From Myxococcota bacterium (lineage in GTDB: Bacteria; Myxococcota_A; Polyangia; Nannocystales; Nannocystaceae): 47,252 nt of DNA. The notes below the pieces were generated by a model that saw only the letters and a list, made by a program, of their open reading frames with translations, did no database searches and was not told the origin of the DNA. Made by a program: the position numbers and the translations under genes. The DNA is taken from assembly GCA_039028615.1 (NCBI GenBank), contig JBCCHT010000063.1, forward strand, positions 1 through 47,252. The letters run 5' to 3'. Shown piece after piece: positions 5,292-22,613 of the stretch. Position 1 is the stretch's first letter, and every line of letters starts with the position of its first letter.

Positions 5292-5822
5292 CTAAGCCCC
5301 GCTGGAGCGCATCTCGGGCACCAGATGGAATCGTATCGGTACGGCGGCCCGAGGATCCGTGCTCGCAAAGCCGAGCCGCTCGAGCAATCGAGCACTGCGT
5401 CGGTTGTCCGGGGCGCAATCTGCCTCGATGCGGCGAAGACCGAGGTCGTCGAAGGCATAGACAATCACGGCGGAGACGATCTCGTGCATCATCCCCTGCC
5501 CTTCGCAGGCCCCCGCGATGCCGTACCCCAGGCGGCAGTGGCCTTCGGCATCCGAGTGCATCGACGTCAACGCGACCGTCCCCACCACTGACTGCCCATC
5601 GGCGCTGAAACCGTAGAGCTTGCAGCTCGAACCGGCACGGAACTCCGCCCGGGCCCGATCGGATGCCTCGGCCCAGAGTTGCTCCTCGAGCATGGGGGAG
5701 GGAAGCGGCGGATCATAACGTTGACCGTTGGCCGACCAGTACTCGAGGAGTTTGGGCGCGTCGTCGCGCGCGCTCAGGCGGACGATGCACCGCGGAGTTC
5801 GGAGGCAGGGAAGGTCTTGCAT
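5292..5822 (-). CDS. RimJ/RimL-like GNAT N-acetyltransferase (last gene of the RiPP operon)
   Basis: LRTPRCIVR, CRLGYGI....EGQGMMHE, LGLRRIEADCAPDNRRSARLLERLGF; starts 18 bp after the upstream stop. Confidence 0.85.
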   Translation of the reverse strand: MQDLPCLRTPRCIVRLSARDDAPKLLEYWSANGQRYDPPLPSPMLEEQLWAEASDRARAEFRAGSSCKLYGFSADGQSVVGTVALTSMHSDAEGHCRLGYGIAGACEGQGMMHEIVSAVIVYAFDDLGLRRIEADCAPDNRRSARLLERLGFASTDPRAAVPIRFHLVPEMRSSGA

Positions 5823-5840
5823 GGCATTCGCCTTCGAGCG

Positions 5841-7910
5841 TCAACGGAAAGAGCCTAGCGCCGTCTTGTCCCGTGCGCTCCGTTCGGCGTCGGCGATGAA
5901 GCGATCGAGCACGCTGCGGTCCTCGAGGTGCGCGCGTATGCCCGAGATGACTCGCTCCAGGCGCTCTCGGTCGAGCGCCAGAGACCCGGCGCCGTCGCGA
6001 CTCGGTTGTGAGACAGAGCCGACGAACGCCTCGTCGGCGGCGAGCTGCTCGCCGAGCCAGGCCAGGAAGTCGCCTCCCGTCTGGCAGCCGGCGGCGAGGG
6101 TGAGGTGCAAGGAAGGCCCCTCGAGCGCGACGGGTCGGTGCCAGGTTTGCGCGGGTACGTACAGCGCATCGCCCTTCGACAGCCACACGTGACGGCTACT
6201 GGTGCCCGTGTTCCCGGCGTTGAGCTGGGCGAGCCGACGCTGTCGCTCGAGCGGCGAACGAATCGGCCCCGGGGCAAGCTCCCAGTACTTGCTGCCCTCG
6301 AGCTGGAGCACGAGGACATGGGTGTCGTCGAAGTGATAGTCGAGACCGGGTCCGCTCGCGCCAGGACTGTAATAGGCGTTGATATGGCAGCGGGTGCCGA
6401 ACACCTCGTGGAGCTGCCACAAAAGCGGCGCGAGGGTGGGATGACAGTGGTGGGCCGCGCTCAGGCGAAGGGTGGTCGTCCAGCCGTTGCTCGTACCATG
6501 ACGATGGGCCTGGTCCCAGCTCTCGGCCTCGTCCCAGCGTGGTGGGTACGGGCGGGTCGGCGGAGCCGGGGGCAAGTAGTTGCCTTGTTCGAACATCTCG
6601 ATGTGCGAGGTCCCGGCTTCGTGCGCGTAGGGGTGGCGCTCGTGGACCTCGCGAACGAGGCGGAGCAGCGTGTCGCCATCGAGTATCTCGGAAAACCGGC
6701 CGGAGTCGCCGCGGAGCACCAGGGCCTGGCGATCGGCGTAGTCTTCGAGGAAATCGGACAGCTCGAGCGGAGCCACGAGTTCATCCAAGCCGGTACCGGC
6801 AGGCCGAAGGGGTGCGGTCATCGTCGGCACGGAGACACTCGCTGCGATCCTCTTCGAGACTTCATCGCGGCGGTCATCGTCGATGAAGCGAGCGAGCGAC
6901 TCCGGGTCCATGTTCGGCTCGGCCCGGATCGGTTCGCCCGACAGCCGCAGGAGGCCCTCGGGGCGGTTCGCCCACGCACACAGCACAGCGGCACCCAAGG
7001 CGGCGGTCGTGTCGTCGGGTACGGTGACGGCAGCGCGCAGGTGCTGCTCCATGAACTCTCGCAGCCGGCGTGGTCGACACCCCGAGCCCACGATCAGCAG
7101 CGGAGTATCCGGTACGACCTGGCGAGCAGTTGCGGCCAACCGTTCGATGTCACGAGCCGCGACGTCGAGGGCCGCTCGCGTCAGCCCGGCTCGCTGCGCT
7201 CCGTCCGGGGACTGGCTACACAGGGCGACGCGCCAGTGGTAGTAGCCGTCGGCAAAGGACTCCTGCGAGTCATGACCCGCGAACGGCACCGCGCTCGCAG
7301 AGGCCGGGGCCTCCAGCTCCGACAAGTCAGTCTCGTACAGTTCGGCCAGCAGTTCCAGCAGCGTCGCCGGGCCGCTGTTGGGCTTTGCCGCCCCCGGGAG
7401 CGGATTGCCCCCCACGAGACTCGGTAGCCCAGCGCCGAGCCTCAACACGGCCTCGATCCGGTTGCCCGTGAAGCGATAGATCCCGATGCCGGCATCGACG
7501 ACGAGCACGCAGAGTTCAGCGTTGGGGACCCGAACCGCCGCAGCGGCTGCCATCGCGGCGAGCGGATCGGAGCTCGTCGACGTCTCCGCGGTCTCGACGA
7601 AGGCCTGGGCCTCGACGAAGCTGGACAACCCGCACCGCCGAGCATGGCTGATGCGTTGGGCCTCCGTCCATGTGCCTCGAGCCCGGACGACTCGACCAAC
7701 ACCAGCCCACGACTGAGCCGCCGGGTTCAGGGCGAGTCCGCTGGCCACCGCGCTGTACAGGCACAGGCCCTCGCGCTCGGGGCCCCGCGCAACGCCGGAT
7801 CGGCCGATCGCGAAGGCACCATCCCGGGGTCGGATCGCGATGCAGGTGCCGGGGAAACGCTCGGGGTCCACCCCCAAGAACACGGTGTCGGTGGGCTCGC
7901 TGGGGCTCAT
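5841..7910 (-). CDS. Fusion of a degenerate carbamoyltransferase-N (Kae1/ASKHA)-like domain and a JmjC/cupin_4 (ROXA/YcfD-like) 2OG-Fe(II) oxygenase
   Basis: C-terminal INAYYSP..GLDYHFDDTHVLVLQLEGSKYW...LSKGDALYVPAQTWH gives the HxD..H triad. N-terminal VFLGVD, VLVVDAG and VPDDTTAALGAAVL resemble the NodU/CmcH N-domain. ATGA overlap with the upstream gene at 7907-7910. Confidence 0.75.
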   Translation of the reverse strand: MSPSEPTDTVFLGVDPERFPGTCIAIRPRDGAFAIGRSGVARGPEREGLCLYSAVASGLALNPAAQSWAGVGRVVRARGTWTEAQRISHARRCGLSSFVEAQAFVETAETSTSSDPLAAMAAAAAVRVPNAELCVLVVDAGIGIYRFTGNRIEAVLRLGAGLPSLVGGNPLPGAAKPNSGPATLLELLAELYETDLSELEAPASASAVPFAGHDSQESFADGYYHWRVALCSQSPDGAQRAGLTRAALDVAARDIERLAATARQVVPDTPLLIVGSGCRPRRLREFMEQHLRAAVTVPDDTTAALGAAVLCAWANRPEGLLRLSGEPIRAEPNMDPESLARFIDDDRRDEVSKRIAASVSVPTMTAPLRPAGTGLDELVAPLELSDFLEDYADRQALVLRGDSGRFSEILDGDTLLRLVREVHERHPYAHEAGTSHIEMFEQGNYLPPAPPTRPYPPRWDEAESWDQAHRHGTSNGWTTTLRLSAAHHCHPTLAPLLWQLHEVFGTRCHINAYYSPGASGPGLDYHFDDTHVLVLQLEGSKYWELAPGPIRSPLERQRRLAQLNAGNTGTSSRHVWLSKGDALYVPAQTWHRPVALEGPSLHLTLAAGCQTGGDFLAWLGEQLAADEAFVGSVSQPSRDGAGSLALDRERLERVISGIRAHLEDRSVLDRFIADAERSARDKTALGSFR

Positions 7911-9151
7911 GCGTTCCTCCAATCGGCGGCGTACCAACCGAAGAAGTCGTAGGCGCGGTGACTACGGTCGAGGGTGAGGCGGACCGGCTGCATCTCGTTC
8001 TGAACCTCTCCCGCCGCCTCGACCAGGCCGCTGCACCACACCTCGGCGGGGCGATCGATGACGAACTCACCGCGGTAGCCGATTGCGATCCTGGCCTCCA
8101 CCGGACCTCGGGGCACGGCCGTTCCCTCGCCGACGAAGCCCTGGATGACCCCCTCGCTCGAGTCGATGTCGAACACGACCATCGGCCTGCGCTGTCCCTG
8201 CTCGTCTCGGATCTCCGAGCGATGCGGCAGGACGGGGGCACCCGATGACGCGGGTCGGGGTTCACCGCGGAGGCGATGGTCCAGGGCCAGCCGTTGCGAC
8301 GAGCGCATGGGGTAGTCGCAGCCCTTGCACGACGCGCGCTCCCGCAGCTTGCCGCCCAGGGCATCGCGGCGCAGCGACTTCATCGCAGGCCCGTTCCACA
8401 GCTCGGCGATCGATTGGTTCGCAAGCGAGCCAAAGGTCTCGTCGTGGGACCAATCTTGGCAGCACAGCAGGGCCTCCCCGTCCCAGCGCAGGGTCAGGGT
8501 CTCGACGGGGTAGCTGCAATAGCCGTAGTCCTCCTCGACCTGCTGCATCACTCGGTCATCGCCCTTCGTCCCCGCGCGAGTCGAGTAGGGCAGCAGCCGC
8601 ACCGAGTACCCTCGCTCGGACCAGTAGTGGCGAAAACGGTTGCCCGCTTCGACGTCGTCGGAGCCGACGACGGAAGACACGACGACCTGGCTGCGATCGC
8701 CCTCCCACGTCGTGAGAACCTCGTGGACCCGATCCCAGCGATCGCGGCCGTGGACCTGCAGGTAGCGTCGCTGGTCGGTGGCGTTGATCGACACCGTCAG
8801 CTGAAAGCGGGGGAAGGTCGCGAGTTCATCGAGGACCTCGTGACCGAGCCGGCTCCCGTTGGTGACCGTGGCGATGGCCTTGATGTTGTCGATGGCATGG
8901 GCCTGCCGCACGAAGTCGACGAAGCGCTTGTCGACCATCGGCTCGTTCTGGAGCATCAGGCACAGCGTCACCGTCTGCCCCGATTGCTCGATCTGCTCGA
9001 GGATGCCGCGATACAGCTCGTCGTCCATCCACGCGGCCTTGGTGTCGAGCGCGGTCGCGGGATACGGGCACATGCTGCACGCGTAGTTGCAGCGATTGTG
9101 CGTCTGAATCTGGATCCTCCGGGGGAAGGCCGAGCCGATTTCTTCGTGCAT
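7907..9151 (-). CDS. Radical SAM enzyme with SPASM/Twitch auxiliary cluster domain and about 130-aa C-terminal extension
   Basis: CNYACSMC (CxxxCxxC), NEP, TNGS; CSYP...DGEALLCCQDW...FGSL..QSIAELWNG...CKGC; ATG 9151 with a GAAGGA RBS. Confidence 0.9.
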   Translation of the reverse strand: MHEEIGSAFPRRIQIQTHNRCNYACSMCPYPATALDTKAAWMDDELYRGILEQIEQSGQTVTLCLMLQNEPMVDKRFVDFVRQAHAIDNIKAIATVTNGSRLGHEVLDELATFPRFQLTVSINATDQRRYLQVHGRDRWDRVHEVLTTWEGDRSQVVVSSVVGSDDVEAGNRFRHYWSERGYSVRLLPYSTRAGTKGDDRVMQQVEEDYGYCSYPVETLTLRWDGEALLCCQDWSHDETFGSLANQSIAELWNGPAMKSLRRDALGGKLRERASCKGCDYPMRSSQRLALDHRLRGEPRPASSGAPVLPHRSEIRDEQGQRRPMVVFDIDSSEGVIQGFVGEGTAVPRGPVEARIAIGYRGEFVIDRPAEVWCSGLVEAAGEVQNEMQPVRLTLDRSHRAYDFFGWYAADWRNA

Positions 9152-9168
9152 CGTAAGGGTCCTTCGGT

Positions 9169-10032
9169 CTACGTCGTGGCGCCGTGGCGTTGCTGCTCGG
9201 CGATCTGGCAACCGGCTCGATACGCATCCGCGTTGGCGACCAGTTGCTCGATGTGGCAGTGCTCGCCGACGGTGGCGGCATCCTGCAGGGTCTTGGTGAC
9301 GGGCTCGTGTGCCCCCTGCCCGTACAGGGTGTTGCGATGCGCAACGAAGGCGAGCAGCTGTCGGAAGCGGAGGCTGTCGGCGTCGCTGACCCGCGGCACG
9401 TGGTTCATCGTGATCAGCCGTCGCGGGCCGCGGGCGTGGAAAGCGGCATGCTTGATGTTCGCGTCGAAGATCAAGACATCGCCGGGCGCCGACTCGAGCG
9501 CGACGCTGGGGATCTGATGTCCGCGGCGGCCCCAGTAGCTCAGCTCGTGGGCGACACGGTTGGTCGAGACTCCCGTGGCCAGCTCGGAGCTGAGAGCGGC
9601 GGAGAACTGATCGTTGGCGTGGTGTGAGCCGGGGATGACCCGCAGACAGCCGCTATCGGCGTGCAGGTCTTCGAGGTAGATCGAGATTCGCAGCGAACGA
9701 AAGGGCAGCACCAGTCGGCCCGCGCCATCGTCCGAGTGCCAGGGGGTGCACTCGCCGGAGAACACCTGGCCCGTGGAGCCGACGTACGAGAAATCGTCTC
9801 CGAGCAGGTCTCGGATCACGGAGACGAGCGGGTCGCCGAAGCCGATGCTGGCCAGTCGCGGGTCCTCGCCCAGGATGTTCGCAATGGACACTCGCTGACC
9901 GGGATGAGCCTCGCGCCATCGGGCCGCGCAGGCATCGAACGCGTGCTCGATCTCGGCGATCCGTGTCGAGAGCAGCCCCGGCAGGTGGAGGAACCCAAAG
10001 GTCTCGAAGAACGAGCGGTCTTGCGAAGGCAT
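9169..10032 (-). CDS. PhyH (phytanoyl-CoA dioxygenase) family 2OG-Fe(II) dioxygenase
   Basis: FFETFGFLHLPGLL, WHSD, SGCLRVIPGSH, PGDVLIFD..IKHAA...R motifs. Confidence 0.9.
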   Translation of the reverse strand: MPSQDRSFFETFGFLHLPGLLSTRIAEIEHAFDACAARWREAHPGQRVSIANILGEDPRLASIGFGDPLVSVIRDLLGDDFSYVGSTGQVFSGECTPWHSDDGAGRLVLPFRSLRISIYLEDLHADSGCLRVIPGSHHANDQFSAALSSELATGVSTNRVAHELSYWGRRGHQIPSVALESAPGDVLIFDANIKHAAFHARGPRRLITMNHVPRVSDADSLRFRQLLAFVAHRNTLYGQGAHEPVTKTLQDAATVGEHCHIEQLVANADAYRAGCQIAEQQRHGATT

Positions 10033-10064
10033 GACGTGGGGCCTAAGAGGTCGAGAGGAAGGAG

Positions 10065-10097
10065 GGCTGCGCCGCCCCGAGTCGGAGCGACGCAGCC
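10065..10097 (-). promoter_or_regulatory. GC-rich mRNA stem-loop directly downstream of the precursor gene
   Basis: Minus-strand RNA GGCUGCGUCGCUCCGA-C-UCGGGGCGGCGCAGCC; the arms pair fully only with two G.U wobbles, which works on the coding (minus) strand. A pyrimidine tract follows. Confidence 0.7.
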
Positions 10098-10107
10098 GCA
10101 CAGCTGG

Positions 10108-10299
10108 CTACTGCCAGGTGTCGTTGGCGTTGATCGTGTGCAGCCGGATCGGGCCCAGCGGGTTGGTGGGAAGGGGGCCACCCGCGCCGGGAACCGCCGC
10201 ACCACCGAGGACCTCCTTGAGCTGCTCGAGGTCGAGCACCTTGGTGTCGGCGCCCACGATGTTGTCGTCAGATTTGGTGTTCTTCTCGTTCTTGTTCAT
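10108..10299 (-). CDS. RiPP precursor peptide with double-glycine leader
   Basis: MNKNEKNTKSDDNIVGADTKVLDLEQLKEVLGG|AAVPGAGGPLPTNPLGPIRLHTINANDTWQ; LDLEQLKEVLGG fits the L(S/D)xxELxxIxGG leader consensus. It lies between tfuA-ycaO and the tailoring genes. Confidence 0.85.
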   Translation of the reverse strand: MNKNEKNTKSDDNIVGADTKVLDLEQLKEVLGGAAVPGAGGPLPTNPLGPIRLHTINANDTWQ

Positions 10300-10401
10300 T
10301 TGTCTATCGACTTTCCGTTACAGGGTTGATGTGAGTGCACCCGAGAGCATCCCGGATGCCTTGGGGGCAAAAATTCGGAAGGGGGTTTGGTGTCAGATCG
10401 T

Positions 10402-12378
10402 CTACGCGTGGTCTTGCACAGGAACGGGAACGCGGCGATCGGCTTTGTCGCGGAGCCAGCCCAGCAATCGTGGTCCCACGTGCGTGGCACAGAGTCCTGC
10501 CTCGTAACCGGGGACGATGCAGCGCACGACGTGGAAGCGCCCGTCGTCCAGCGACAGATCGACCGCGAGGACCCGCTCGAGTCCACCCCCCTTGCAGACC
10601 TCGAGCGCACGCTGGAGGTCGCCAGTGATGGTGCGAGTGCTGAGATCGGGCAGCTGTCGGAAGTCGACCGGCTCGGTGCTGCTCCACTGCAGCGCATGCT
10701 GTCGCACGGTCTGGATGTCCATCCCGGCCCGGGCAGCCTTGTCACGCTCGAGGTCCTCGCGCGAGCCCGACACCACCGTGAGCCGGGTGTAGACCGCCTC
10801 GCTCAGCGCGGACGCGAACGCAACGCGGGGGTCGAGGTGACACGCCTGGCCGGCGTTGACGTACAGCGTGTTGTCTTCGTTGCGATCGTCGAGCGCGACA
10901 GAGAACAGCGGCAGCGAGAACTCGTTGTAGACGACCCAGCAGTGCACATCGATGCCGGCCGATTGCAGCGTCTCGATGACGTGCCGGCTGTGCTCGTCGG
11001 TGATGGTCGACAGATCGAGCGGCCGTCCATCGCGAAACCACCAGGCGTAGGTCGCGATGTCTCGCTCGATCACCTCGATCAGCCCGTAGAGCAGCGCCTC
11101 GGTGAGGGTCGCTCCCGTGGCCGCCCCGGCGGAGCTCGACGGGAACAAGCGTGGGCCCTCGGGGACGGGAAAGAACACGGAGGCCGCGGGAACCATCATG
11201 GCCTCGCCCGTCAGCAGGTCACGGGCGGGCCACCACGGGAGGGGCTCCGACTCCGACCAGGTACAGTCGAGCTCCCGAACCAGTGCATTGGGGTGCAGGA
11301 CGCGGTGCTCCCGAGCGACCTCGGCGAGCGTGCCGTACACCACGGGGCGATTGCGGCAGGACAGACACGCCCGCTCCACGGCTTCCAACAAGGCGCCGAC
11401 TCGTGCTCCGTCGGCACTGAGCCCCTTGCCGCCGGTCACCGTGATGTCGCCGACGTCGGCATAGGGGCGAAGCGAGCTGTAGCTCGATAGCCCCAGGCGT
11501 TCGAGGTCGGAAAGATCGGCCAGCCTCGTCACGCCGACCCTTCGGGCGTCGATCCATGCCCGCTCCAGCGCGGCCTCGGGGGACGAGATTCGATGAGAAC
11601 CGGGCGTCTTGGGCTGCTCGCCGGGCCGCCCGAGGAACTGCTCGACCGAGGGGGGCTCGGCCGGGACGTACTGCATCGTCGGCGGCCCTGCGGGGGCGCG
11701 GCGAACAATTCGGCGTTCCGCGATCCGGGTGAGCAACTCCACCGCATCGAGAGCCTTGCGATCGTGGGCGCGCGGATCTTGCTCCATGGCGGAGACGAGA
11801 GTCGACAACGCCGCATTGCTCGAGGTCGCGGGCGCCTGGCGCAGAAAGTCGAAGGTCCGCTCCCAGTACGGCACATCCGCCGCGCAACGCAGCGCAGCAT
11901 CGACCTGCGCCGCGCCGAGGACCCCGCTCGCCACCGCGCGCTCACCGGCCCATCGTAGGTTGACCATGGGCACGGACATTGCTCGATGCCGCTCGGTGTC
12001 GAACACGAGCGCGACCTCTTCGTCGGACTCGATGCGGCCGGAGACATAGGCCTCGTAGATCCAGCCGACCCCGTTCATCCCCAAGGGCTGACTCTCGGAG
12101 GCCCGCAGCGCGCCCATCGAGGACGAGCCGCAGATCCATGCTCCCGCGTGAACGGCCTCGCGAATCTCGACCAACGAGACGGACAGGCTCTGGGAAAACT
12201 CGCCGTCGATGATCGCGAAGCGTGACCACCCTTCGGCGAGCAAGCGCGGCAGGTCCCCGCGTCGAATCGGAGGCTGGAAGTGGGCATCCGGGAGGATTGC
12301 CTCGGCGTCTTCGCGGGGCAGGCACGGACCCTGGAACACGACCCAGCGCTCGTCTCGATGTTCGTCGTTCGTGTTCAT
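10402..12378 (-). CDS. tfuA-ycaO: TfuA-YcaO fusion (putative backbone thioamide synthetase)
   Basis: TfuA: VFQGPCL, PPIRRGDL, IIDGEF, GSSSMGALRASE, GVGWIYE, DEEVA, PMVNLR, RKALDA. YcaO: GVTRLADL...GKG...EAVER, SAGAATG...GLIEVIERD, EAVYTRL..SGSRED. ATG 12378 with a GGAGG RBS, 2 bp after the upstream TAG. Confidence 0.92.
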   Translation of the reverse strand: MNTNDEHRDERWVVFQGPCLPREDAEAILPDAHFQPPIRRGDLPRLLAEGWSRFAIIDGEFSQSLSVSLVEIREAVHAGAWICGSSSMGALRASESQPLGMNGVGWIYEAYVSGRIESDEEVALVFDTERHRAMSVPMVNLRWAGERAVASGVLGAAQVDAALRCAADVPYWERTFDFLRQAPATSSNAALSTLVSAMEQDPRAHDRKALDAVELLTRIAERRIVRRAPAGPPTMQYVPAEPPSVEQFLGRPGEQPKTPGSHRISSPEAALERAWIDARRVGVTRLADLSDLERLGLSSYSSLRPYADVGDITVTGGKGLSADGARVGALLEAVERACLSCRNRPVVYGTLAEVAREHRVLHPNALVRELDCTWSESEPLPWWPARDLLTGEAMMVPAASVFFPVPEGPRLFPSSSAGAATGATLTEALLYGLIEVIERDIATYAWWFRDGRPLDLSTITDEHSRHVIETLQSAGIDVHCWVVYNEFSLPLFSVALDDRNEDNTLYVNAGQACHLDPRVAFASALSEAVYTRLTVVSGSREDLERDKAARAGMDIQTVRQHALQWSSTEPVDFRQLPDLSTRTITGDLQRALEVCKGGGLERVLAVDLSLDDGRFHVVRCIVPGYEAGLCATHVGPRLLGWLRDKADRRVPVPVQDHA

Positions 12379-12380
12379 GA

Positions 12381-14309
12381 CTATGCGGCCTCCACCAGGA
12401 AGGGTCGGAACCGGGCGTCGATGCGGATGTCGTGCTCGTGGAACAGACGTTGGACTCGCCACTGCGCCAGCCCGTCGTCGTCGTCATCGGGGCCGATGTC
12501 GTGCAGCGCTCGAAGCACGCTCGCCTCGCTGTCGTGGCTCGCCAGCAACGCCTCCAGCAAGCGGTACGGGGTCGTCTGGGTACGCCCACTCGGATCGACA
12601 TCGACTCCGAGCCCAGCCATGAGCTGCTCGAACGCGGGGCTGCGATGGCCTCGGAGCAGCTCGCACAGGATGAACGCCAGCGCGTTGTCGAGTGCATGCC
12701 CGGCCTCGTCCGGGTCGAGTCGCTCGGCGAGCAGGCGCGGCGATGGACCAGTGCCGTCGGGCCACAGTCCGCTCAAGCGGTTGGCGAGGGCGTCCGGCAC
12801 CCCCGGCAGCGCGGGAGGCTCGGGGCCGAGCCGGGCGGCGATCCACTCGGGGGTCGCGCTTCGACGCAAGAAGCGGCACCAGTCGCGCCCCTTGCGGTGC
12901 TCACCGGCCAGCAGCGTCTTCTCCACGTAGTCGAAGAACGACAGAGCCTCGGTCACGCCACCCAGGGCTCCGACGATCGCCTTGGGGATGTGGAAGGTCG
13001 GGTGCAACAGGCGCGTGTCGTCGCTCGACGTCGTGCCGGTATGGGTCTGCGAGTGCGCGACCGACTGCTCTCCGACCACGTCCACCACGCTGTCGAAGAG
13101 GCGGGTGCCCACCCCGACCTCGGCGCGGGCGAAGCGACCGGCGAGGTCTCGATCGTAGCGCTTCAGCGTCTGGGCGATCGTGTTCGGGGTGCTGAACGCA
13201 TTGCCCAGAAACAGCCCGATCTTGGCCCCTCGGCCATCGGGTCCGCCGGGCAACAGCTCGGCCGTGATCTGGGCGTGCTCCACCAGGTCGGACGCTCGGT
13301 AGGGCACCCGGCAGGATCGCAGGACCGAGTCCTCGAGCGCAGGGAAGTCGTTCCAGCCTCCCATGAAACCGGAGCGGTACATCAGCTCGAGATCGTCGCG
13401 ACCGAGCCACCGCGGCAGCATGTACGCGCGCCACGACACCGGAGTCGTTCGCCCCTCGTTGAAGCGAAGGAACCGCTCGGAGACCGTGCGCGCCAGATCG
13501 GCCGAGCCCATGTTGAGCTCCGAGCAGACCAGCCACACGCTGCGGACCCCCTGGCGAGCCAGGAACTCCACGTCGGCCATGACCGCATCGAGGTCTCGGA
13601 CGCGGGTCTTTCGGCCTTTGACGGTGGGCTCGGTGCAAAAGTAGCAGCGATAGGGGCAACCGCGAGCCAGCTCGACGGCGACCGTGGGCGGGTCTTGCCC
13701 GTGGAGCTGGCCTTGGCCGTAGAAGCTCTCGAGCGCCGCGAAGACCTCTTCGTCGTACTCGCGCTCGTTCAGCGGCGCGTGGAAGACCCTGGCGTTGGAG
13801 GCCACCTGTCCCCCGTCGTCGAAGAGCAGGTTGTCGACGCGATCGAGGTCTCGGCCCGCGAGGACCGAATCGAACGCGGCCAGCATGCCATCGGGCTCGC
13901 CTTGAACCCCGAAGTCCACGCCGAGGTGCCGATAGAGGCGATGAGCGTGCGTCGTGAATCCGAAGCCGCCCGCGAAGATCTTGGCGTCAGTACGCCGACG
14001 AACCTGCTCGACCAGCCACCGGGTGTCACGCAGCGGAAAGTAGGCGAACTCGGAGGTCGACGGGTGGTAGTCGCGGAGCAGGAGCGAATCGGCCTGGCGC
14101 AGGTGGACTCCCACCGCGCGAGGACGGTGCGTCTCTAGCAGCCGATCGAGGTGCGGTCCGATCTGCTCGGGCGCGACTCCGAACAGATCGTGCCCGACCA
14201 CCCGCAGACCATGCTGCTTGGCGATCGCCCTCACTTGCACGAATGCATAGGGATAGACCGGGCGCCGCGGATAGTTCGTCGCGTTGAGCAGCAGGAGATC
14301 GGTAGACAT
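12381..14309 (-). CDS. Cobalamin (B12)-binding radical SAM enzyme (class B methyltransferase-like)
   Basis: N-terminal B12-binding Rossmann pattern (VYPYAF...VGHDL...PRAVGVHLR...IFAGGFGFT...GVQGEPD), then ELARGCPYRCYFCTE. Confidence 0.88.
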   Translation of the reverse strand: MSTDLLLLNATNYPRRPVYPYAFVQVRAIAKQHGLRVVGHDLFGVAPEQIGPHLDRLLETHRPRAVGVHLRQADSLLLRDYHPSTSEFAYFPLRDTRWLVEQVRRRTDAKIFAGGFGFTTHAHRLYRHLGVDFGVQGEPDGMLAAFDSVLAGRDLDRVDNLLFDDGGQVASNARVFHAPLNEREYDEEVFAALESFYGQGQLHGQDPPTVAVELARGCPYRCYFCTEPTVKGRKTRVRDLDAVMADVEFLARQGVRSVWLVCSELNMGSADLARTVSERFLRFNEGRTTPVSWRAYMLPRWLGRDDLELMYRSGFMGGWNDFPALEDSVLRSCRVPYRASDLVEHAQITAELLPGGPDGRGAKIGLFLGNAFSTPNTIAQTLKRYDRDLAGRFARAEVGVGTRLFDSVVDVVGEQSVAHSQTHTGTTSSDDTRLLHPTFHIPKAIVGALGGVTEALSFFDYVEKTLLAGEHRKGRDWCRFLRRSATPEWIAARLGPEPPALPGVPDALANRLSGLWPDGTGPSPRLLAERLDPDEAGHALDNALAFILCELLRGHRSPAFEQLMAGLGVDVDPSGRTQTTPYRLLEALLASHDSEASVLRALHDIGPDDDDDGLAQWRVQRLFHEHDIRIDARFRPFLVEAA

Positions 14310-14383
14310 GAAACCAAGCCGCACCAGGAACCGTGCGCCTCTTCGTCGTGCACCGATAGAGTCGTTGTAGGGAAAACGGATCA

Positions 14384-14405
14384 GAGAAAAATTCGAATTT
14401 TCCTC
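14384..14405. promoter_or_regulatory. AT-rich palindrome upstream of the RiPP operon (candidate operator)
   Basis: GAGAAAAATTCGAATTTTCCTC, with a perfect 14-bp core AAAATTCGAATTTT at 14388-14401, about 78 bp upstream of ATG 14309. Confidence 0.5.
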
Positions 14406-14650
14406 GGGGCGAAATTGTCTCTGGGAGGGGCTCGAGCGGTTGCGAACGGCCGAGCGGCCAGCCGCCCCAAAACGATGAACGATCCCCCGTCGGCTCGATC
14501 GACGGACAGTGGTACGTGCTCGGCATCGATGCCATCGATCCCCACTGCGGGTAGCTGGACTCCGCAAAAACGAAAGAGGCCTCGATGCTCGCCGAATCCT
14601 CGCGGACTGGCGGCACCGAGGCCTCATTCACCCTTGCCCGGGCGCGTGGG

Positions 14651-16591
14651 CTACTCCTCGACCTGGCTGACCACCATGTTGACGAAGGTCGAGTCGCACC
14701 AGTTGGCGCCGAGCCCTTGATGAACGCGAAGGTAGACCCGCTCACCCGTGGCCATCGACAGCGCCACGTCGTGCTCGTAGGTGATGCCGAAGTCCCCGTA
14801 CTGCGTCCACAGCAGGTTGCCCTGGTCGTCGCGAAGCTCGATGTCTACCCCTTGGCCGACACAGCCGGGGTCCCCCGTGCCGATCTCCACCGCCACGTCG
14901 GCCTCGCCATCCGCGGGCGCCTCCCAGGCCAGCGTCGTCCAGCCGGCACAACCCTTGACCGAAGGCGGAACCATGACGAGCTGGTCCGGATCGGTGATCC
15001 AGGGGAAGAACGATGCGTCGGTGCAGGTCGGATCGCGCCACGAGTCGTTCCCCCAGTAGGCCGGGCCGGGCTCCAGCTCGGTGTAGTTGCCGTTGCCGTC
15101 CGCGTCGTACAGGTAGCGCCACGTGTCGTCCTCTTGGTCGCTGCCCGCGGTGCACAGCGACTGACCCAAGACGCGGGGATCGTCGTCGATCACCACGCAG
15201 CCATAGCCCGGGCCCCCCATCGAGCCACCGTCGGCGAGCCGCACGATGTACCAAGTCCCCAGCAACGAACACAGCTCGCCGTTGCGCGCTCGCGCCTCGT
15301 CGGGGGTCACGAGCGAGAAGTCCCCCGAGCACGTGCCGTCGCCCGGGAACAGCTGGTCCTGGTGCGGCACTCCGAGCTCGAAGTCGGCCGCGGCATCGTA
15401 GATGGTCGGCTCGACGCACGACCCATCCGCCGCCACCGAGGCACCGGCCAGCTCCGCCTCGCACGCGCTGCCGTAGGTCACCCCATCACAACCGCAGACC
15501 TCACCCGCCGGGGCGAACTCGCAGCCGATGGGTTGGGCTTTGCACATCCCCGCGGCCACCGTGCCGCACGCCGCCGCCTCGTCGAAGCTGCAGAACGAGT
15601 CCGCGCTGCAGTCGTCGTTGCTCGTACACGCCCCGGCGCCCTGGTAGGCGTACAGCGGCTGGCACGGCTCGACGTCGAAGTCGGTGTGCTGCGGGCCCCA
15701 GTACCAGGACTGACTCTGCGTGAGGTTGTTCCACACGCCCATGCCCATGTAGCCCACGACGTCCACCCAGTACGAGACGCTGGTTGGTCCATCGTAGAGG
15801 ATGGGGAACACCTGCCAGTTGTTGCCGGACTCCGCCGTGACGGCGAACGCCTCGGTGGTGGGCACCGTCCCCACGAGCGACTGGTACGCGGGCGTGCTGC
15901 CGTTGACCTGCGCTGCGACGACGCTACCGAAGGGCAGGTCGTAGTCGGCGGCCGTGCCTGCTCCTTGGTTGGGGAACCATGCCTGGTACGCCTGATTGGC
16001 GGCGTTCCAGGTGAACACGCCGGTCACCGAGCTGCCCAGCTGCGCCGCGACATCCGAGGCACGCGAGGGTCCGCCCAGCATGCACAGGCCCAGCTTGTTG
16101 TAGCCTGGCGCCATCTCGGTGGTCTTCTTCATCAGCATCGTCGACGGCTGGCCATCGATGCTGAGGCGATAGAAGGTGTCCGACGTGGGCTGATCGTGAT
16201 GCGCCGCGTCAGCATCGATGTAGCTGGTGGTCCCCGCGGGAAGCACGATGACCTCCGCGCCCGAGCTGGGCAGGGCAGCAGCGTCGCTCAAGTCGGTGGG
16301 CTCCGTCGTTCGGTACAGGCGAACATCGGCGCCGGAGGGCCCGGCCACCGACCAGTCGAGCACAACGTCGTTCCCGACGACCGAGACATCCACACCGAAG
16401 CCCGGGAAGGCCGGCGTCCCACGACCATCCTCGAGCGCATCCGCAGCGGAGTTCGGCACGCCCTCCCCTTCTTCCTCATCGGCGAGTTCGGCCTCGAGCT
16501 CCAGGTCGTTGGTGGGGCCCTCGGCCTGGCAGGCCGGCAGCGCGAGCAGGGCGAGGGTCGTAAGGGCAGCGTGGGTGGTCTTGATGGTCAT
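14651..16591 (-). CDS. Multidomain secreted lipoprotein with Kazal-like and aerolysin/pertussis-toxin (APT)-like domains
   Basis: Lipobox LALPAC; VCGCDGVTYGSAC (Kazal-like); DQLFPGDGTC...VTPDEA...LGTWYIVRLADGGSMGGPGY...SLC (APT-like); ATG 16591 with a GAAGGA RBS. Confidence 0.75.
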   Translation of the reverse strand: MTIKTTHAALTTLALLALPACQAEGPTNDLELEAELADEEEGEGVPNSAADALEDGRGTPAFPGFGVDVSVVGNDVVLDWSVAGPSGADVRLYRTTEPTDLSDAAALPSSGAEVIVLPAGTTSYIDADAAHHDQPTSDTFYRLSIDGQPSTMLMKKTTEMAPGYNKLGLCMLGGPSRASDVAAQLGSSVTGVFTWNAANQAYQAWFPNQGAGTAADYDLPFGSVVAAQVNGSTPAYQSLVGTVPTTEAFAVTAESGNNWQVFPILYDGPTSVSYWVDVVGYMGMGVWNNLTQSQSWYWGPQHTDFDVEPCQPLYAYQGAGACTSNDDCSADSFCSFDEAAACGTVAAGMCKAQPIGCEFAPAGEVCGCDGVTYGSACEAELAGASVAADGSCVEPTIYDAAADFELGVPHQDQLFPGDGTCSGDFSLVTPDEARARNGELCSLLGTWYIVRLADGGSMGGPGYGCVVIDDDPRVLGQSLCTAGSDQEDDTWRYLYDADGNGNYTELEPGPAYWGNDSWRDPTCTDASFFPWITDPDQLVMVPPSVKGCAGWTTLAWEAPADGEADVAVEIGTGDPGCVGQGVDIELRDDQGNLLWTQYGDFGITYEHDVALSMATGERVYLRVHQGLGANWCDSTFVNMVVSQVEE

Positions 16592-16870
16592 GGCGTGTAC
16601 GTCCTTCGGGGGCCAGGCGCCTCGTCGGTGACCGCACGGTTTTTCATCGTGCCGGTCGCCGAACGGGGCGGCGTTTCGACTTCGAGGGCGGCGACGAGGC
16701 CCGCTCGCCCGGTTCGCCCTAGCTGTCCGACCACACCCGGTTTCGTTCCCGCCTTTTTGCTGGCTACTTCGAATGGCCGTACGAGGCCCCCGAACGCCGC
16801 TACGGAGCCCTTCGCCCGGGACGAGGGCCGACGACCGAGGCCGCCGGCCCAGCTGCGATAGCCTGACCAG

Positions 16871-17158
16871 GTGCCGGTCTCCGCTCGAATCGAAGCGATC
16901 TTGGCGAAGCAACGCAGCGATGCCGAGCAGCGCGATTGGAGCACGGCCAAGGGCATCGTCGCTGCGGTCGGAGCCGCACGCGATGCGCTGGAGCGAAGGC
17001 TCGCCCAGCCGGGCGCCCCACCATCGGCAGAGCAGCTCGCGGACGCAGTCGAGGCCGCCAAGGCCGAGTTTCGTGAATTGTGGGAGGACGAAGCGGGCTA
17101 CGGACTCGCGACGCTCGGCGAGATTGCGGCCGCCCTCCGATCGGGGCCTGAGGACTGA
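16871..17158 (+). CDS. Small helical hypothetical protein
   Basis: GC3-biased codons; fills the gap between flanking genes; no recognisable motif. Confidence 0.5.
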   Translation: MPVSARIEAILAKQRSDAEQRDWSTAKGIVAAVGAARDALERRLAQPGAPPSAEQLADAVEAAKAEFRELWEDEAGYGLATLGEIAAALRSGPED

Positions 17159-17211
17159 GCCGCCTTCGCGGCCCCAGCCTCACCCGTGTCGCGCTCGGCG
17201 GCCGGGCTCGA

Positions 17212-18159
17212 TCACAGCTTCCACTCGAAACCGGTTTCCTTCTCGCTCCGTTCCCAGAGTCTCGTCATGACGGCTTTGTCGTGGGCGTGGGGCTCCAGCG
17301 TGCCCCTGCCCACGGGACCGACCCACTCCATCCGTCCCGTCGGACCGAAGAGGGCGCGCTGCTCCAGACCCTCCTGCGTCGCGCACATGACCTCTGGATA
17401 CGCGCCCTTCTCGGCGGTCTGAACCATCGGAGACATCGCCATGAGCCGGAACATGATCCGCATGGCCAAGCTACCGCTCGTGTCGATGAGCGAGGTCGCG
17501 GACGACCCGGGGTGACAGACATAGACTTCGACGTCCTTGCTGGTCGCCTCGATCTTGTCTTGAAGTTCATAGGCGAACATCATCTGCGCCAGCTTGCTCT
17601 GGCTGTAGACCGGGTTGGCGCTGTAGTTGCCGTCCCAGTTCATGTCGTCGAACTGGATCGTCTTGATCCCCATCTTGTAGCCCAAGCTCGCGACCACCAC
17701 GATACGGCCCCTCGACTCTTCGACCCGCTCGAAGAGCAGCCCGCACAGCAGGAAGTGACCATAGTGGTTCGTGCCGAGCTGGCTCTCGAACCCATCGACG
17801 GTGAGCTTTTGCTTGGGCACCTGGGCAATGGCCGCGTTGCAGATGAGGGCGTCGATCCGGGGCACCGTATCCAGGAGTTCCGCCGCGGCTTCGCGCACGC
17901 TCGACAGCGCCGCCAGGTCCATGCGTATGAAGCGGACCTCTGCCCCCTCCCCGAACTCCTCCTTCAGCTTCGCGATGGCAGCGTTGGACTTTTCGGGATT
18001 GCGGTTGAGCATCACCACCCCCGCCCCCTTCGACAGGAAGGTTCGCGCCGCCTGGAACCCGACCCCCCCGTTGGCACCGGTGATGACGAAGGTCTTTCCG
18101 GTGAGCGAGCTCAGTCGCTCCGGGGTCCAGCCGTGGGGTCCAAATGTCTTGTCTGCCAT
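17212..18159 (-). CDS. Short-chain dehydrogenase/reductase (retinol dehydrogenase/WWOX-like)
   Basis: VITGANGGVG, DLAALSSVR, CNAA, GFESQLGTNHYGHF, YSQSK (YxxxK), HPG. Confidence 0.93.
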   Translation of the reverse strand: MADKTFGPHGWTPERLSSLTGKTFVITGANGGVGFQAARTFLSKGAGVVMLNRNPEKSNAAIAKLKEEFGEGAEVRFIRMDLAALSSVREAAAELLDTVPRIDALICNAAIAQVPKQKLTVDGFESQLGTNHYGHFLLCGLLFERVEESRGRIVVVASLGYKMGIKTIQFDDMNWDGNYSANPVYSQSKLAQMMFAYELQDKIEATSKDVEVYVCHPGSSATSLIDTSGSLAMRIMFRLMAMSPMVQTAEKGAYPEVMCATQEGLEQRALFGPTGRMEWVGPVGRGTLEPHAHDKAVMTRLWERSEKETGFEWKL

Positions 18160-18312
18160 CTCAGGTCTCCCGCCAGCCAGTGCGAATCGGGTCTCGCCCG
18201 CCAGCTCGTGTCCCAAACCTAGGCGCTACGCGACGACACTCTACTGTCTCCGCGCGCCAATTCCCTGCCTCCACGCGCCAGCTCGACCGAAGGCGTCGGG
18301 CCGAGGCCTCCC

Positions 18313-19476
18313 TCAGGTCGACGAAGGGCGCTCGACCACCAGCAGGCAACACAGCGCGAGCTGCCCGGACACCGACACCACGTAGTGCGCGAAGACGTCG
18401 GTGATCACCAGCTCGAGACCGATCGCGAGCGCGGTGAGGCCCACCAGCATCGCCCACGCCGATCCACGCCCCCGCAGCGACTTGGCCAGGGCGTCCCACC
18501 GCCGAGCCAGGAACAGGCTGATGGCCATCACCACCGTACTCAGCCCGGCGAAGGCCCACGACGACAGCGCGTGCGTGTCGACGAGCCAGACGACCACGGC
18601 GATCACGGCGTAGTGCACGGGCACCACGGCCAAGCTGCTGATCCCCCGCAAGCTGATGCGACCGGCCAAGCCCGCCGAGGGAGCCGCGAGCAACGACACG
18701 CCGGAGCCGAGCGCCAGGGCCACCATGCCCGAGACGAAGAACACCTTGGAGACCGTGCCCCAGCGCATCATGTTTGCGCCGCGAATCGCCAGCCACCACA
18801 CCACCGCCAAGCCGACGACCCCGAGCGCCAGCACGACCCATGTGATCACGCGTCGACGCTCGAGCACCAGCTCTTGCTTGCGCTGAAGCAACACCCCCGC
18901 CGAGAACCCGGCCAGCGCATACGCGACCCAAGGCAGCACGGGATACGAGAAGCCAGGGGGCGAGCCCAGCCCCGCGAGCCAGTGGAGCATGGTGGGCGCC
19001 TGGCCCGGCCCCACCGCATCGACCAGGCGAGGCGTCACCCCGTAGCGGAGCGCAGCCACCAGGACGACACCGACCAAGGGCCAGATCCACCCGACCCGCC
19101 ATCGACGCAGCGGCTCGAGCAACAGCATGCACAGCGCGATGAAGCCGAGGAAGTTCAGGCCGATCCACGTCTCGGGGCTCAGCCACATCAGCGCGTCGGC
19201 CAGCAGGAGGATCCAGACCTTGCGCAGGAACCCGAACGCATGCCCACCGCGCTTGCGGGGTAGCTCGCTCTGAATTCCATAGCCGATCCCCGTGGTGGCG
19301 AAGAACACCACTGGCGCGTAGCTCCCGATGATGAACAGCGCGCCCATCAGCGGGTCCTCGCGCTGCACCGCGGTCAGCCACTTCGCCGCCGCATGGTTGT
19401 AGACCATGATGATGCCCGCGATCCCGCGCAGGACATCGAGCTCGACCCATTTTGTTCGCTTCGAAGGTGCGCCCAC
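18313..19476 (-). CDS. HGSNAT/DUF1624-like multi-pass membrane protein (acyltransferase-like)
   Basis: ELDVLRGIAGIIMVYNH, APVVFF..GIG, YPVLPW motifs; about 10 hydrophobic helices. Confidence 0.75.
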   Translation of the reverse strand: MGAPSKRTKWVELDVLRGIAGIIMVYNHAAAKWLTAVQREDPLMGALFIIGSYAPVVFFATTGIGYGIQSELPRKRGGHAFGFLRKVWILLLADALMWLSPETWIGLNFLGFIALCMLLLEPLRRWRVGWIWPLVGVVLVAALRYGVTPRLVDAVGPGQAPTMLHWLAGLGSPPGFSYPVLPWVAYALAGFSAGVLLQRKQELVLERRRVITWVVLALGVVGLAVVWWLAIRGANMMRWGTVSKVFFVSGMVALALGSGVSLLAAPSAGLAGRISLRGISSLAVVPVHYAVIAVVVWLVDTHALSSWAFAGLSTVVMAISLFLARRWDALAKSLRGRGSAWAMLVGLTALAIGLELVITDVFAHYVVSVSGQLALCCLLVVERPSST

Positions 19477-19659
19477 GGAACGGTCGGCATCCTAGCAGGC
19501 CCCGGCTGTCACGCCCGCGTTGGTGATTTTGTTCATCCCCTGTGACTTCTGATCGGTTCGCCGGTTGCTTCGACCACGGTGAACACCCGGGAAATCGAGA
19601 GTACGGGTGGGTCCTGCTCCGATGGTAACCTACCGCCGTAGTGACACTGCCGAGGTGAG

Positions 19660-21330: not shown

Positions 21331-21425
21331 CGATGCCGCCGCGCGCAGGCGTGCGGCACGAACGATCATCGTGGTGGACCGCAATGCGACGCATGTCCAC
21401 CCGCGACCGGTGCTACGGTGGAACG

Positions 21426-22556: not shown

Positions 22557-22613
22557 GTCGACCACTGCGGCCTCGGGGAGTCGACGCCCCCTGAGCAATA
22601 CGTCTCGCTCGGC

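Follow-up and report, generated by a model that had tools for sequence, protein, structure and literature searches.

The DNA analysed here, hereafter the window, is the entire 47,252-base contig JBCCHT010000063.1 (C63) of a Myxococcota bacterium assembly (GCA_039028615.1; 12.27 Mb, 94 contigs, 96.7% complete). On its minus strand, between positions 5292 and 14309, seven genes form an operon that most probably (we put the probability at about 0.75) makes a peptide that is synthesized on the ribosome and then modified post-translationally (a RiPP), thioamidated by a fused TfuA-YcaO protein and tailored by several further enzymes, a chemistry that we deduce from the enzyme families. Both the RiPP and the thioamide reading are well supported by sequence comparison, and the cluster would represent an uncharacterised variation on the TfuA/YcaO RiPPs. 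The sole sequencing run found to hold the window sequence is a marine metagenome DNA run, probably its source; the run search returned no RNA run with this sequence, which is no evidence either way on expression.

The seven genes lie head to tail in the open reading frame (ORF) lists. They are given below in order of transcription, with the hairpin and the presumed promoter region that accompany them (SAM, S-adenosylmethionine; aa, amino acids).

14310–14650, no strand: intergenic region of 341 nt between the start of the B12-binding radical SAM gene and the stop of the upstream 753-aa gene, presumed promoter region
12381–14309, minus: B12-binding radical SAM enzyme (P0211), 642 aa, from Pfam matches just below cut-off, NCBIfam and the TsrM structure
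10402–12378, minus: TfuA-YcaO fusion (P0002), 658 aa from the ATG at 12378, TfuA N-terminal of YcaO
10108–10299, minus: putative precursor peptide, 63 aa, from its translation, codon-position GC and a homologue at locus L128
10065–10097, minus: perfect 15-bp hairpin with a 3-nt loop, from folding, then a C/U-rich tract
9169–10032, minus: PhyH-family Fe(II)/2-oxoglutarate dioxygenase, 287 aa from the ATG at 10032, from Pfam PhyH
7907–9151, minus: radical SAM enzyme with a SPASM/Twitch-like domain and a C-terminal extension, 414 aa, from Pfam
5841–7910, minus: orphan N-terminal domain fused to a JmjC domain (P0061), 689 aa, from JmjC_2
5292–5822, minus: RimJ-like GNAT N-acetyltransferase, 176 aa, from Acetyltransf_3, last gene of the operon

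Read from the sequence, the TAG of the B12-binding radical SAM gene is followed after 2 nt by the ATG of TfuA-YcaO. Further along, 17 nt separate the PhyH gene from the start of the radical SAM-SPASM gene at 9151, this gene and the JmjC fusion overlap in an ATGA, and 18 nt lie between the JmjC fusion and the GNAT gene. Such operon spacing, together with the conservation found elsewhere, exceeds chance. The initial annotation, made from the sequence, had described seven co-oriented genes at 5292–14309 with gaps of 2, 17 and 18 nt and one ATGA overlap, and the ORF lists and the sequence agree with it. Pfam, run on 14 ORFs (31 window ORFs were covered in total), and NCBIfam likewise bear out the enzyme types and gene order it proposed, except for a carbamoyltransferase-like label on the orphan domain.

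The RiPP reading depends first on the 63-codon ORF between the TfuA-YcaO and PhyH genes (10108–10299). Its translation, MNKNEKNTKSDDNIVGADTKVLDLEQLKEVLGGAAVPGAGGPLPTNPLGPIRLHTINANDTWQ, has LGG at residues 31–33, which would divide a Lys/Asn-rich leader (1–33) from a Pro/Gly-rich core of 30 aa (34–63) ending in TWQ, with Trp penultimate. This core has no Cys, Lys or Ser, and contains three Thr, one Arg and one His, the latter two in the order Arg-Leu-His. Double-glycine leaders follow the consensus LxxxELxxVxGG, and residues 22–33, LDLEQLKEVLGG, match this pattern; cutting after G33 would expose an N-terminal Ala on the core. The GC content at the three codon positions (0.62/0.39/0.89) is typical of coding sequence in 67% GC DNA. 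No match to the precursor was found in Pfam or NCBIfam at E ≤ 0.01, and a word-based search of 5.8 billion proteins returned only the precursor itself (1/1 candidate). That outcome reflects the sensitivity limit of the word search, since relatives were later found by genomic context.

Indeed, a genome of the same genus (locus L128, G047:C25) carries a 56-aa ORF, MNKNDKNNDTTKTPEKLEELDAETLDEILGGITGLPSLPGLPGFPGLPTSEPVAWQ, that matches the window precursor by BLASTP at 1e-5. Approximately 96 nt downstream of it lies a homologue of the radical SAM-SPASM enzyme (39% identity over residues 8–412 of 414), followed by an MNIO (MbnB/TglH/ChrH), a homologue of the B12-binding radical SAM enzyme (42%), a 2-oxoglutarate (2OG)-Fe(II) oxygenase, an asparagine-synthase-like gene and a cupin. 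What the L128 cluster shares with the window is therefore the precursor with its downstream hairpin, both radical SAM enzymes and an oxygenase of the cupin type, whereas the MNIO, the 2OG-Fe(II) oxygenase and the asparagine-synthase-like gene replace TfuA-YcaO, PhyH and GNAT. The initial annotation had read the operon as a RiPP cluster and had named the lack of any conserved small ORF in homologous clusters, together with the lack of a mass shift on co-expression, as the outcome that would speak against it; at L128 a conserved small ORF stands beside homologous enzymes, in favour of that reading.

Two further loci extend this group. At L139 (same family, another genus), a Pro/Gly-rich ORF with a double-glycine leader, MNDKKNKQPLVDESKFADELDEETLANVLGGISIDPRPLPGPGIPGAGGPIPGDCDW, lies between two radical SAM-SPASM genes and a YcaO gene, with two JmjC genes, a B12-binding radical SAM homologue (37%), an O-methyltransferase and an aminotransferase nearby. 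A profile built from the first two precursors was run over the order and recovered MRKKNNKGLKRIKRKGSVQLELREEELAEVNGGLLAGPISNTASLPDLPGLPGLPGWPPAPPPLPWP at L173 (same genus, G048:C1370, 1–12747). This Pro/Gly-rich precursor, also with a double-glycine leader, is surrounded by HTTM, full-length LanB, TauD, 2OG oxygenase and methyltransferase genes and by a divergent frame of over 549 aa, led by TfuA and truncated at the end of the contig, so that L173 would combine a thioamide with a dehydratase. Ten positions are invariant in the four aligned precursors (K6, L22, E25, L27, G32, G33, P37, G38, G41 and W62). The window precursor appears to be a member of a small family, not described before, whose common scaffold is served by different enzyme modules.

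Peptides of a similar design occur elsewhere. On contig C16 of the window's own genome (G000; 136,459–137,481, L182 7947–9482, minus), an ORF with a double-glycine leader and a Pro-rich core ending in a His/Trp-rich stretch is immediately followed by the gene for a 408-aa JmjC_2 protein (1.5e-29), and the space between the two genes holds a 13-bp hairpin. This unit may be a stand-alone peptide-hydroxylase cassette, and it suggests that such oxygenases act on these peptides. In another genus of the family, L171 (G038:C2, approx. 9650–10360) and L172 (G042:C1, approx. 9890–10320) contain small ORFs in tandem, two to three of them, whose double-glycine leaders are Lys/Asn-rich in the same way but whose cores are rich in Cys and end in acidic residues.

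The hairpin at 10065–10097 starts 11 nt past the precursor stop and is weak when taken alone (z = −1.68). However, a perfect hairpin of 11–18 bp with a similar tail also stands behind every one of the other four precursor genes, at L128, L139, L173 and in the C16 unit, and these four hairpins reach z scores of −2.94 to −5.08, with at most 1 in 200 shuffled sequences folding as well. A hairpin thus lies 3′ of the precursor gene in all five genes examined. What recurs among them is thus the structure and not the sequence of the stem. RiPP operons in which the precursor message is kept in excess show this arrangement, and the element found here is probably an attenuator or a transcript-stabilizing element. 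Its position also bears on the PhyH start: an alternative GTG at 10101 would give a protein of 310 aa and place the hairpin inside the gene, and the ATG at 10032 is therefore favoured.

These observations weigh on another explanation of the locus, in which no RiPP is made at all: the enzymes would act on a full-size protein, in the style of uL16 or McrA, or be unrelated neighbours, and the 63-codon ORF would be incidental. A JmjC_2-type oxygenase and YcaO of Escherichia coli are indeed described as modifying neighbouring residues of uL16 (PMC13063428), the window contains no RiPP recognition element (RRE), protease or exporter, and the small ORF found no relative by words. We nevertheless hold this explanation to be highly improbable. 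The small ORF is of coding type and has its homologue beside homologous enzymes at L128, its hairpin recurs at four related precursor genes, and the operon is tightly spaced. Moreover, the cluster is patchy and rare (in 0 of 72 genomes of the order and in none of two 400-genome samples), a distribution that fits secondary metabolism and not housekeeping.

The thioamide part of our reading comes from the TfuA-YcaO fusion. In a single frame, 10402–12462, Pfam TfuA matches at 1.1e-32 and YcaO at 1.1e-64, the latter over the whole profile. The nearest NCBIfam models are the YcaO of McrA-glycine thioamidation (3.1e-59) and its TfuA (3.3e-51), both below cut-off, and the nearest structures in the PDB are TfuA 6XP8 (6.1e-29) and the Methanocaldococcus jannaschii YcaO MJ1094, 6PE3 (7.9e-25). 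An alignment of 11 sequences of the fusion family shows many invariant residues, GGKG and EAVER among them. In the accepted mechanism, YcaO activates the amide with ATP and the sulfide of a thiocarboxylated ThiS-type carrier comes via TfuA (PMC13174530, PMC13063428). Backbone thioamidation, which the initial annotation had already attached to the pair TfuA and YcaO, is the best reading of the fusion, because its nearest NCBIfam models and nearest structures are thioamide-forming; the McrA-glycine models, 6XP8 and 6PE3 support it at the level of sequence.

Activation of amides with ATP is common to YcaO enzymes, and a RiPP could also arise here if the YcaO closed an amidine macrocycle or made an azoline, as happens in bottromycin, streptamidine and the azol(in)e peptides. 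The azoline-forming enzymes TruD, MusD and LynD do appear among the PDB matches of the fusion, and the core would offer three Thr and, after cleavage, a free N-terminus. Yet those three structures rank behind 6PE3, TfuA shares a frame with YcaO, thioamide formation is the chemistry of the top NCBIfam models and of the top YcaO structure, and there is neither an E1-like or Ocin-ThiF partner nor a dehydrogenase, nor any Cys or Ser in the core. We therefore consider a non-thioamide product very unlikely.

Close relatives of the fusion are scarce. A protein search gave 59 matches among 8000 scored candidates, including 10 relatives of the same architecture (39–59% identity over at least 90% of the length), all from metagenome assemblies. 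In the order, its 72 other genomes yielded no orthologue, nor did samples of 400 genomes each from the class and, with a stricter first look, from the phylum; apart from the genome's own C17 paralogues, the non-self matches of these searches covered the YcaO part only (31–37%). A scan of genome contigs with the fusion gave 25 pattern matches and one weak relative (28%, in a metagenome-assembled genome (MAG) of Inquilinaceae). In metagenomes, the patterns derived from the fusion alignment fell on motifs common to TfuA proteins in general (of 519 relatives, 80 loci were retained), and tblastn of eight window proteins against 101 loci returned no close relative, with a second, weak match in L059 only. 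The plasmid collection held only split TfuA/YcaO at 31–35% and no relative of the B12-binding radical SAM enzyme; a Mycetohabitans locus inspected there is a different cluster, with Nif11, LanM and ThiS.

The linkage of the fusion to its upstream neighbour is also found in other assemblies. The best relatives of the B12-binding radical SAM enzyme and of TfuA-YcaO lie on contigs of the same sizes (17086, 366271, 11760, 9213 and 34832 nt), and for the 34832-nt pair the NCBI names carry the locus tags RL685_993 and RL685_996, which belong to a single MAG. Both genes are thus found together in one other assembly at the least and probably in five.

A second TfuA/YcaO cluster exists in the window's own genome, on one strand of contig C17 (approx. 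14,900–22,600; L177 6906–14518). It encodes a radical SAM protein (498 aa), an MNIO (MbnB/TglH/ChrH), a YcaO, a TfuA, a second YcaO, a GNAT and a methyltransferase of the TylF type. Against a profile of the window fusion family, the YcaO and TfuA of this cluster give strong scores.

The first enzyme of the operon, P0211, has 19 NCBIfam matches, mostly to B12-binding radical SAM families and all below cut-off (best 1.1e-29), and resembles the TsrM structure 6WTE (6.3e-17 over residues 5–162). It has a CX3CX2C motif and shares 43% identity over 509 aa with a B12-binding radical SAM enzyme of Streptomyces clavuligerus, CPYRCYFC being common to both. For its C-terminal approximately 290 aa, an Atlas search gave TM scores below 0.4 and no family. 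The enzyme as a whole belongs to a wider family (147 matches), with members in Streptomyces, Kitasatospora, Stigmatella, Archangium and Kofleriaceae. Named homologues from the last three taxa, like the size and the GC content of the genome, are in keeping with Myxococcota. The initial annotation had called the product C-methylated. Methylation does stand as the most likely chemistry for such an enzyme, but not as the only one: PbsB of the biphenomycin pathway, a B12-binding radical SAM enzyme of similar size that also acts on a leader-bearing peptide, forms a biaryl C–C cross-link and does not methylate (PMC12257519), and methylation by the window enzyme is therefore not certain.

A distant branch of this enzyme family, similar only over the first approximately 480 residues, is found at L134 (G298:C36) and L135 (G371:C2). 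There it forms part of a conserved block with a class-V aminotransferase, a thiamine pyrophosphate enzyme-receiver fusion, a KAS III-like gene and several histidine kinases, and without RiPP context (L134 was annotated by Pfam, and L135 likened to it by ORF sizes).

The second radical SAM enzyme (ORF 7907–9211) matches Pfam Radical_SAM (9.7e-14) and SPASM (7.4e-12) and stays below every NCBIfam cut-off; its sole PDB relative is BtrN. Compared with the L128 and L139 homologues, the CX3CX2C cysteines C21, C25 and C28 are invariant, as are C212, C230, C231, C275 and C278. A predicted complex of this enzyme with the precursor scored 0.02, which counts neither way. Near the homologues of the enzyme in genome G154, no related precursor or partner was found.

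The PhyH protein (ORF 9169–10101) matches Pfam PhyH at 1.8e-15, and its PDB matches are phytanoyl-CoA dioxygenase-family proteins and ectoine hydroxylase (1.9e-5 to 4.6e-5). The last enzyme, GNAT, matches Acetyltransf_3 (2.6e-23), with RimJ (PRK10809) as its nearest NCBIfam model (1.3e-16, below cut-off) and ribosomal-protein Ser/Ala N-acetyltransferases as PDB matches (1e-6 to 9e-6), which places it closest to N-terminal acetyltransferases of the RimJ/RimL type. An N-terminal Ala is the RimJ substrate type, so a RimJ-type enzyme would fit the Ala that cleavage after the double glycine exposes.

When all 1.84 billion representatives were searched with HMMER, the JmjC fusion had 4286 matches at E ≤ 0.001, and only three reached 1e-30, namely the protein itself, P0062 (40%, full length) and P0063 (33%). 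The remaining matches align only to residues approximately 380–690, the JmjC part. With two relatives among 1.84 billion representatives, the fusion of the orphan domain to JmjC is very rare. In ORF 5841–7937, JmjC_2 matches at residues 507–615 (4.7e-18), the nearest structures of this domain are the ribosomal oxygenases NO66 and MINA53, and the HxD...H triad (H526, D528, H591) is invariant in the three known fusions. Pfam JmjC_2 also finds a match in the E. coli control genome, which we take to be RoxA.

As regards the orphan N-terminal domain (approx. 370 aa), FGGY_C matches at residues 215–323 with 25.6 bits against a cut-off of 27, and XylB at 0.0032. Its Atlas model (predicted local distance difference test score, pLDDT, 0.61) gives TM scores of 0.57–0.66 to carbamoyltransferase-N/TsaD and of approximately 0.5 to pantothenate kinase II and PilM, while our own AlphaFold2 model (pLDDT 46) is too poor to use. 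The weak signals all agree on an ASKHA-like domain, at the level of fold only, which makes this a lead and not a finding. The carbamoyltransferase-like label of the initial annotation went further than these fold-level hints: no Carbam_trans_C/YrdC-like domain was found by Pfam in the fusion, and the three fusions keep DAG and GAA motifs invariant but no invariant His.

A 707-codon JmjC_2 frame on contig C8 of the same genome was set aside as a second such fusion, its first approximately 317 codons looking non-coding and the real gene having approximately 390 aa. A region of the same contig (approx. 186,000–206,000; L175) forms a third RiPP-like cluster, in which an ORF with a double-glycine leader (L175 15288–15458, minus) and a core of another kind, rich in Tyr, Phe and Thr, is accompanied by genes for a B12-binding radical SAM enzyme (584 aa), a cupin/JmjC protein and a LanB dehydratase that is full-length but divergent. 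Of the genome's 10 JmjC_2 matches, five lie within these 20 kb.

Several observations weigh against the reading of the operon as a thioamidated RiPP cluster:

— The Pfam matches of the B12-binding radical SAM enzyme fall below cut-off (Radical_SAM 28.1 versus 29.5 bits; B12-binding 24.4 versus 32.1 bits).

— A class-wide search with this enzyme found a homologue in 11 other genomes of 400, and 12 loci were compared, all by tblastn with eight window proteins and six of them by Pfam on 71 ORFs (all but L130, L132, L133 and L135–L137). A second enzyme of the window type occurs in only two of the 12, L128 and L139, and a RiPP context is absent from most of the other genomes that have a homologue.

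— TfuA and YcaO are absent within 16.8 kb at L128, and thioamidation is therefore not a conserved feature of the precursor family.

— The L139 and window precursors compare pairwise at a BLASTP E of 8.2 only, so that their likeness rests on motifs and context.

— Among the 31 ORFs scanned, no protease, exporter, ThiS or PqqD-like RRE was found in the window.

The last point is also the main argument for a cluster that is decaying or silent, with intact genes and no mature product in the native host for lack of a sulfur carrier, protease and exporter. Indeed, the precursor has a double-glycine leader, yet no C39 peptidase transporter stands in the cluster, and neither ThiS nor a C39 peptidase nor a transporter is encoded on the contig; that the run search listed no RNA run with the sequence counts neither way. 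On the other side, all seven frames are open and keep their catalytic motifs. The genome moreover has three Peptidase_C39 matches, all on other contigs (C18 and C1), and three ThiS-family matches (contigs C13, C2 and C14), which could act in trans. We judge a silent or decaying cluster unlikely.

Returning to the thioamidated RiPP, the following pathway can be proposed from the enzyme families. The hairpin behind the precursor gene would secure a high ratio of precursor to enzyme transcript. The TfuA-YcaO fusion would activate one or more backbone amides with ATP and swap oxygen for sulfur, drawing on a ThiS-type thiocarboxylate encoded elsewhere in the genome. The B12-binding radical SAM enzyme would modify unactivated carbons, most likely by C-methylation and perhaps in the Pro-rich segment, or else by forming a C–C cross-link; the radical SAM-SPASM enzyme would introduce a cross-link or an epimerization, possibly at the invariant C-terminal Trp. 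One side-chain hydroxylation each might come from PhyH and from the JmjC domain, and the single Arg and single His of the core would suit JmjC chemistry of the ribosomal-oxygenase type. The orphan ASKHA-like domain could hold the peptide, or derivatize the new hydroxyl in an ATP-dependent manner. Finally, a C39-type peptidase-exporter encoded elsewhere would cleave after Gly33, and the RimJ-like GNAT would then acetylate the exposed N-terminal Ala.

Set against the related loci, the heart of the family that is conserved appears to consist of the precursor, the radical SAM-SPASM enzyme, the B12-binding radical SAM enzyme and a JmjC/cupin oxygenase, with TfuA-YcaO, PhyH and GNAT as one of several interchangeable tailoring sets in this bacterial family. 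A bolder proposal, which we offer as doubtful, is that the window belongs to an undescribed RiPP class of marine myxobacterium-like bacteria. Such a class would be defined by a Lys/Asn-rich double-glycine leader, a Pro/Gly core with an invariant C-terminal Trp and the enzyme trio radical SAM-SPASM/B12-binding radical SAM/JmjC-cupin, onto which TfuA-YcaO, MNIO or LanB modules are grafted, and in it the orphan-domain/JmjC fusion would couple hydroxylation to an ATP-dependent derivatization of the hydroxyl (phosphorylation, adenylylation or O-carbamoylation). We know of no such reaction pair in RiPPs, though no search was aimed at it.

The surroundings of the operon add little. No sigma-70 consensus site was found between 4800 and 15000, although a sigma-70 scan says little for such an organism, and four terminator-like sites were found versus 3.4 expected. 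Downstream of the operon lies a convergent gene. Upstream, the minus-strand 753-aa frame (14651–16912) encodes a secreted protein with a Cys-rich C-terminal part, probably unrelated to the operon; it has at least five paralogues in the genome at 23–36%, and its Kazal_2 and APT matches are sub-threshold. A plus-strand ORF at 3–464 is cut by the contig end, and its first 42 residues are seven tandem six-residue Ala/Lys/Thr units. The remainder of the contig encodes kinases, a sigma factor, an alginate lyase and the like.

Backbone thioamides are rare in nature, and to our knowledge the four characterised classes of YcaO-TfuA-modified RiPPs all come from Actinobacteria. Four such classes are counted, besides its own new one, in a 2026 preprint (PMC13174530). 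If a product were reconstituted from the window operon, the thioamide peptides would gain a class from a marine bacterium resembling Myxococcota, in which thioamidation would be joined by two radical SAM steps and two oxygenases, and the uncharacterised fused TfuA-YcaO cluster type that Malit et al. (2021) list would gain a function. Perhaps the greater use lies in the comparison of genomes, in that one leader/core scaffold is met with differing enzyme modules in related genomes: such natural mix-and-match pathways could help to assign enzyme functions, and the precursor profile could serve to mine ORFs that word searches miss. The orphan-domain/JmjC fusion is a target for enzymology in its own right. 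The cluster as a whole is a good target for heterologous reconstitution, yet one among many uncharacterised RiPP clusters.

Among known systems, the nearest in gene content is a Burkholderia thailandensis cluster, listed from bioinformatics, with a fused tfuA-ycaO and two radical SAM proteins (Malit et al. 2021, PMC8120280, Fig. 5A, Fig. S23). The legend of Fig. S23 lists a fused TfuA-YcaO, PhyH, a radical SAM protein, a radical SAM C-methyltransferase, a cupin, a precursor and ThiS, and names no product. When this text is set against the domain content of the window, the types of six of the seven window genes are found in it. The two clusters differ in that ThiS is part of the B. thailandensis cluster and not of the window's, and in that the legend lists neither a GNAT nor an orphan domain fused to the cupin, both of which the window has. 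The claim of the initial annotation that the operon matches no family was thus overstated, nearly the same type of gene set being on that list. Compared by description only, the B. thailandensis cluster seems at most distantly related to the window, because there is no Burkholderia protein among the 59 TfuA-YcaO matches, because 'RiPP maturation radical SAM C-methyltransferase' is not among the 19 NCBIfam matches of the window's B12-binding enzyme at E ≤ 0.01, and because the hosts belong to different phyla. In the CC-licensed PMC and bioRxiv literature searched, no product was reported for a fused TfuA-YcaO cluster with radical SAM partners.

The thioamitides (thioviridamide, thiostreptamide) share with the window the backbone thioamidation by TfuA and YcaO. 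Their clusters have a PhyH-like oxygenase that hydroxylates His. They differ in carrying aminovinyl-methylcysteine (AviMeCys), a ring that is impossible in the window core, which is without Cys, and in having no radical SAM enzymes and actinobacterial hosts, whereas the window operon has radical SAM enzymes. Neither an HFCD-type Cys decarboxylase nor a flavoprotein domain was found among the 31 window ORFs scanned, and no APH or HopA1-type domain of a phosphotransferase/lyase pair in the operon; the genes for Ser/Thr kinases that lie farther along the contig are of the ordinary Pkinase kind. The initial annotation was therefore right, for these 31 ORFs, in separating the operon from thioviridamide by the lack of core Cys, HFCD enzyme and kinase/lyase.

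In the std pathway of Streptomyces thermodiastaticus, YcaO-TfuA thioamidates a residue near a conserved C-terminal SNKEWQE motif, and a precedent is given for a carbamoyltransferase in a RiPP pathway (PMC13174530, 2026 preprint). Both systems would combine thioamidation with oxidative tailoring and a WQ-containing C-terminal motif. However, the carbamoyltransferase there, StdF, is of the complete NodU type, carries a fused S8 peptidase and modifies Lys, whereas the window core has no Lys and the orphan domain lacks the YrdC-like half; and std is described with an MNIO and no radical SAM enzymes, whereas the window has two.

The E. coli protein uL16 is hydroxylated at Arg81 by RoxA and converted to a thioamide at Met82 by YcaO, and the two genes co-occur (PMC13063428). 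The same two enzyme types are present in the window, the core of which contains Arg-Leu-His, but uL16 is a folded ribosomal protein modified without TfuA, whereas the window has TfuA fused to YcaO and encodes, next to the enzymes, a peptide with a leader. The parallel would thus be one of mechanism, not of membership.

Clavusporin MpcB of S. clavuligerus is reported to C-methylate Val, Ile, Thr and Pro (10.1101/2024.01.23.576971). MpcB and MpcC are B12-binding radical SAM enzymes of similar size that act on leader-bearing peptides, and Pro methylation by MpcB would fit the Pro-rich core. MpcB, however, is reported with a CX7CX2C motif and needs a DUF5825 partner, whereas the window enzyme and the S. 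clavuligerus relative compared with it have CX3CX2C; with a different motif and no DUF5825 in the window, the enzyme was not equated with the MpcB type. The DUF5825, S9 peptidase and major facilitator superfamily proteins by which mpc clusters are defined were not found in the 31 window ORFs. As to proteusins, neither a nitrile-hydratase-like nor a Nif11-like leader was matched by Pfam or NCBIfam at E ≤ 0.01, and the leader has only 33 aa.

Judged by its genes, the window cluster is thus not a thioamitide, thiopeptide, proteusin or clavusporin cluster. It does have the broad features of TfuA/YcaO RiPPs: the YcaO ATP-site region, a fused TfuA and a precursor gene between YcaO and PhyH.

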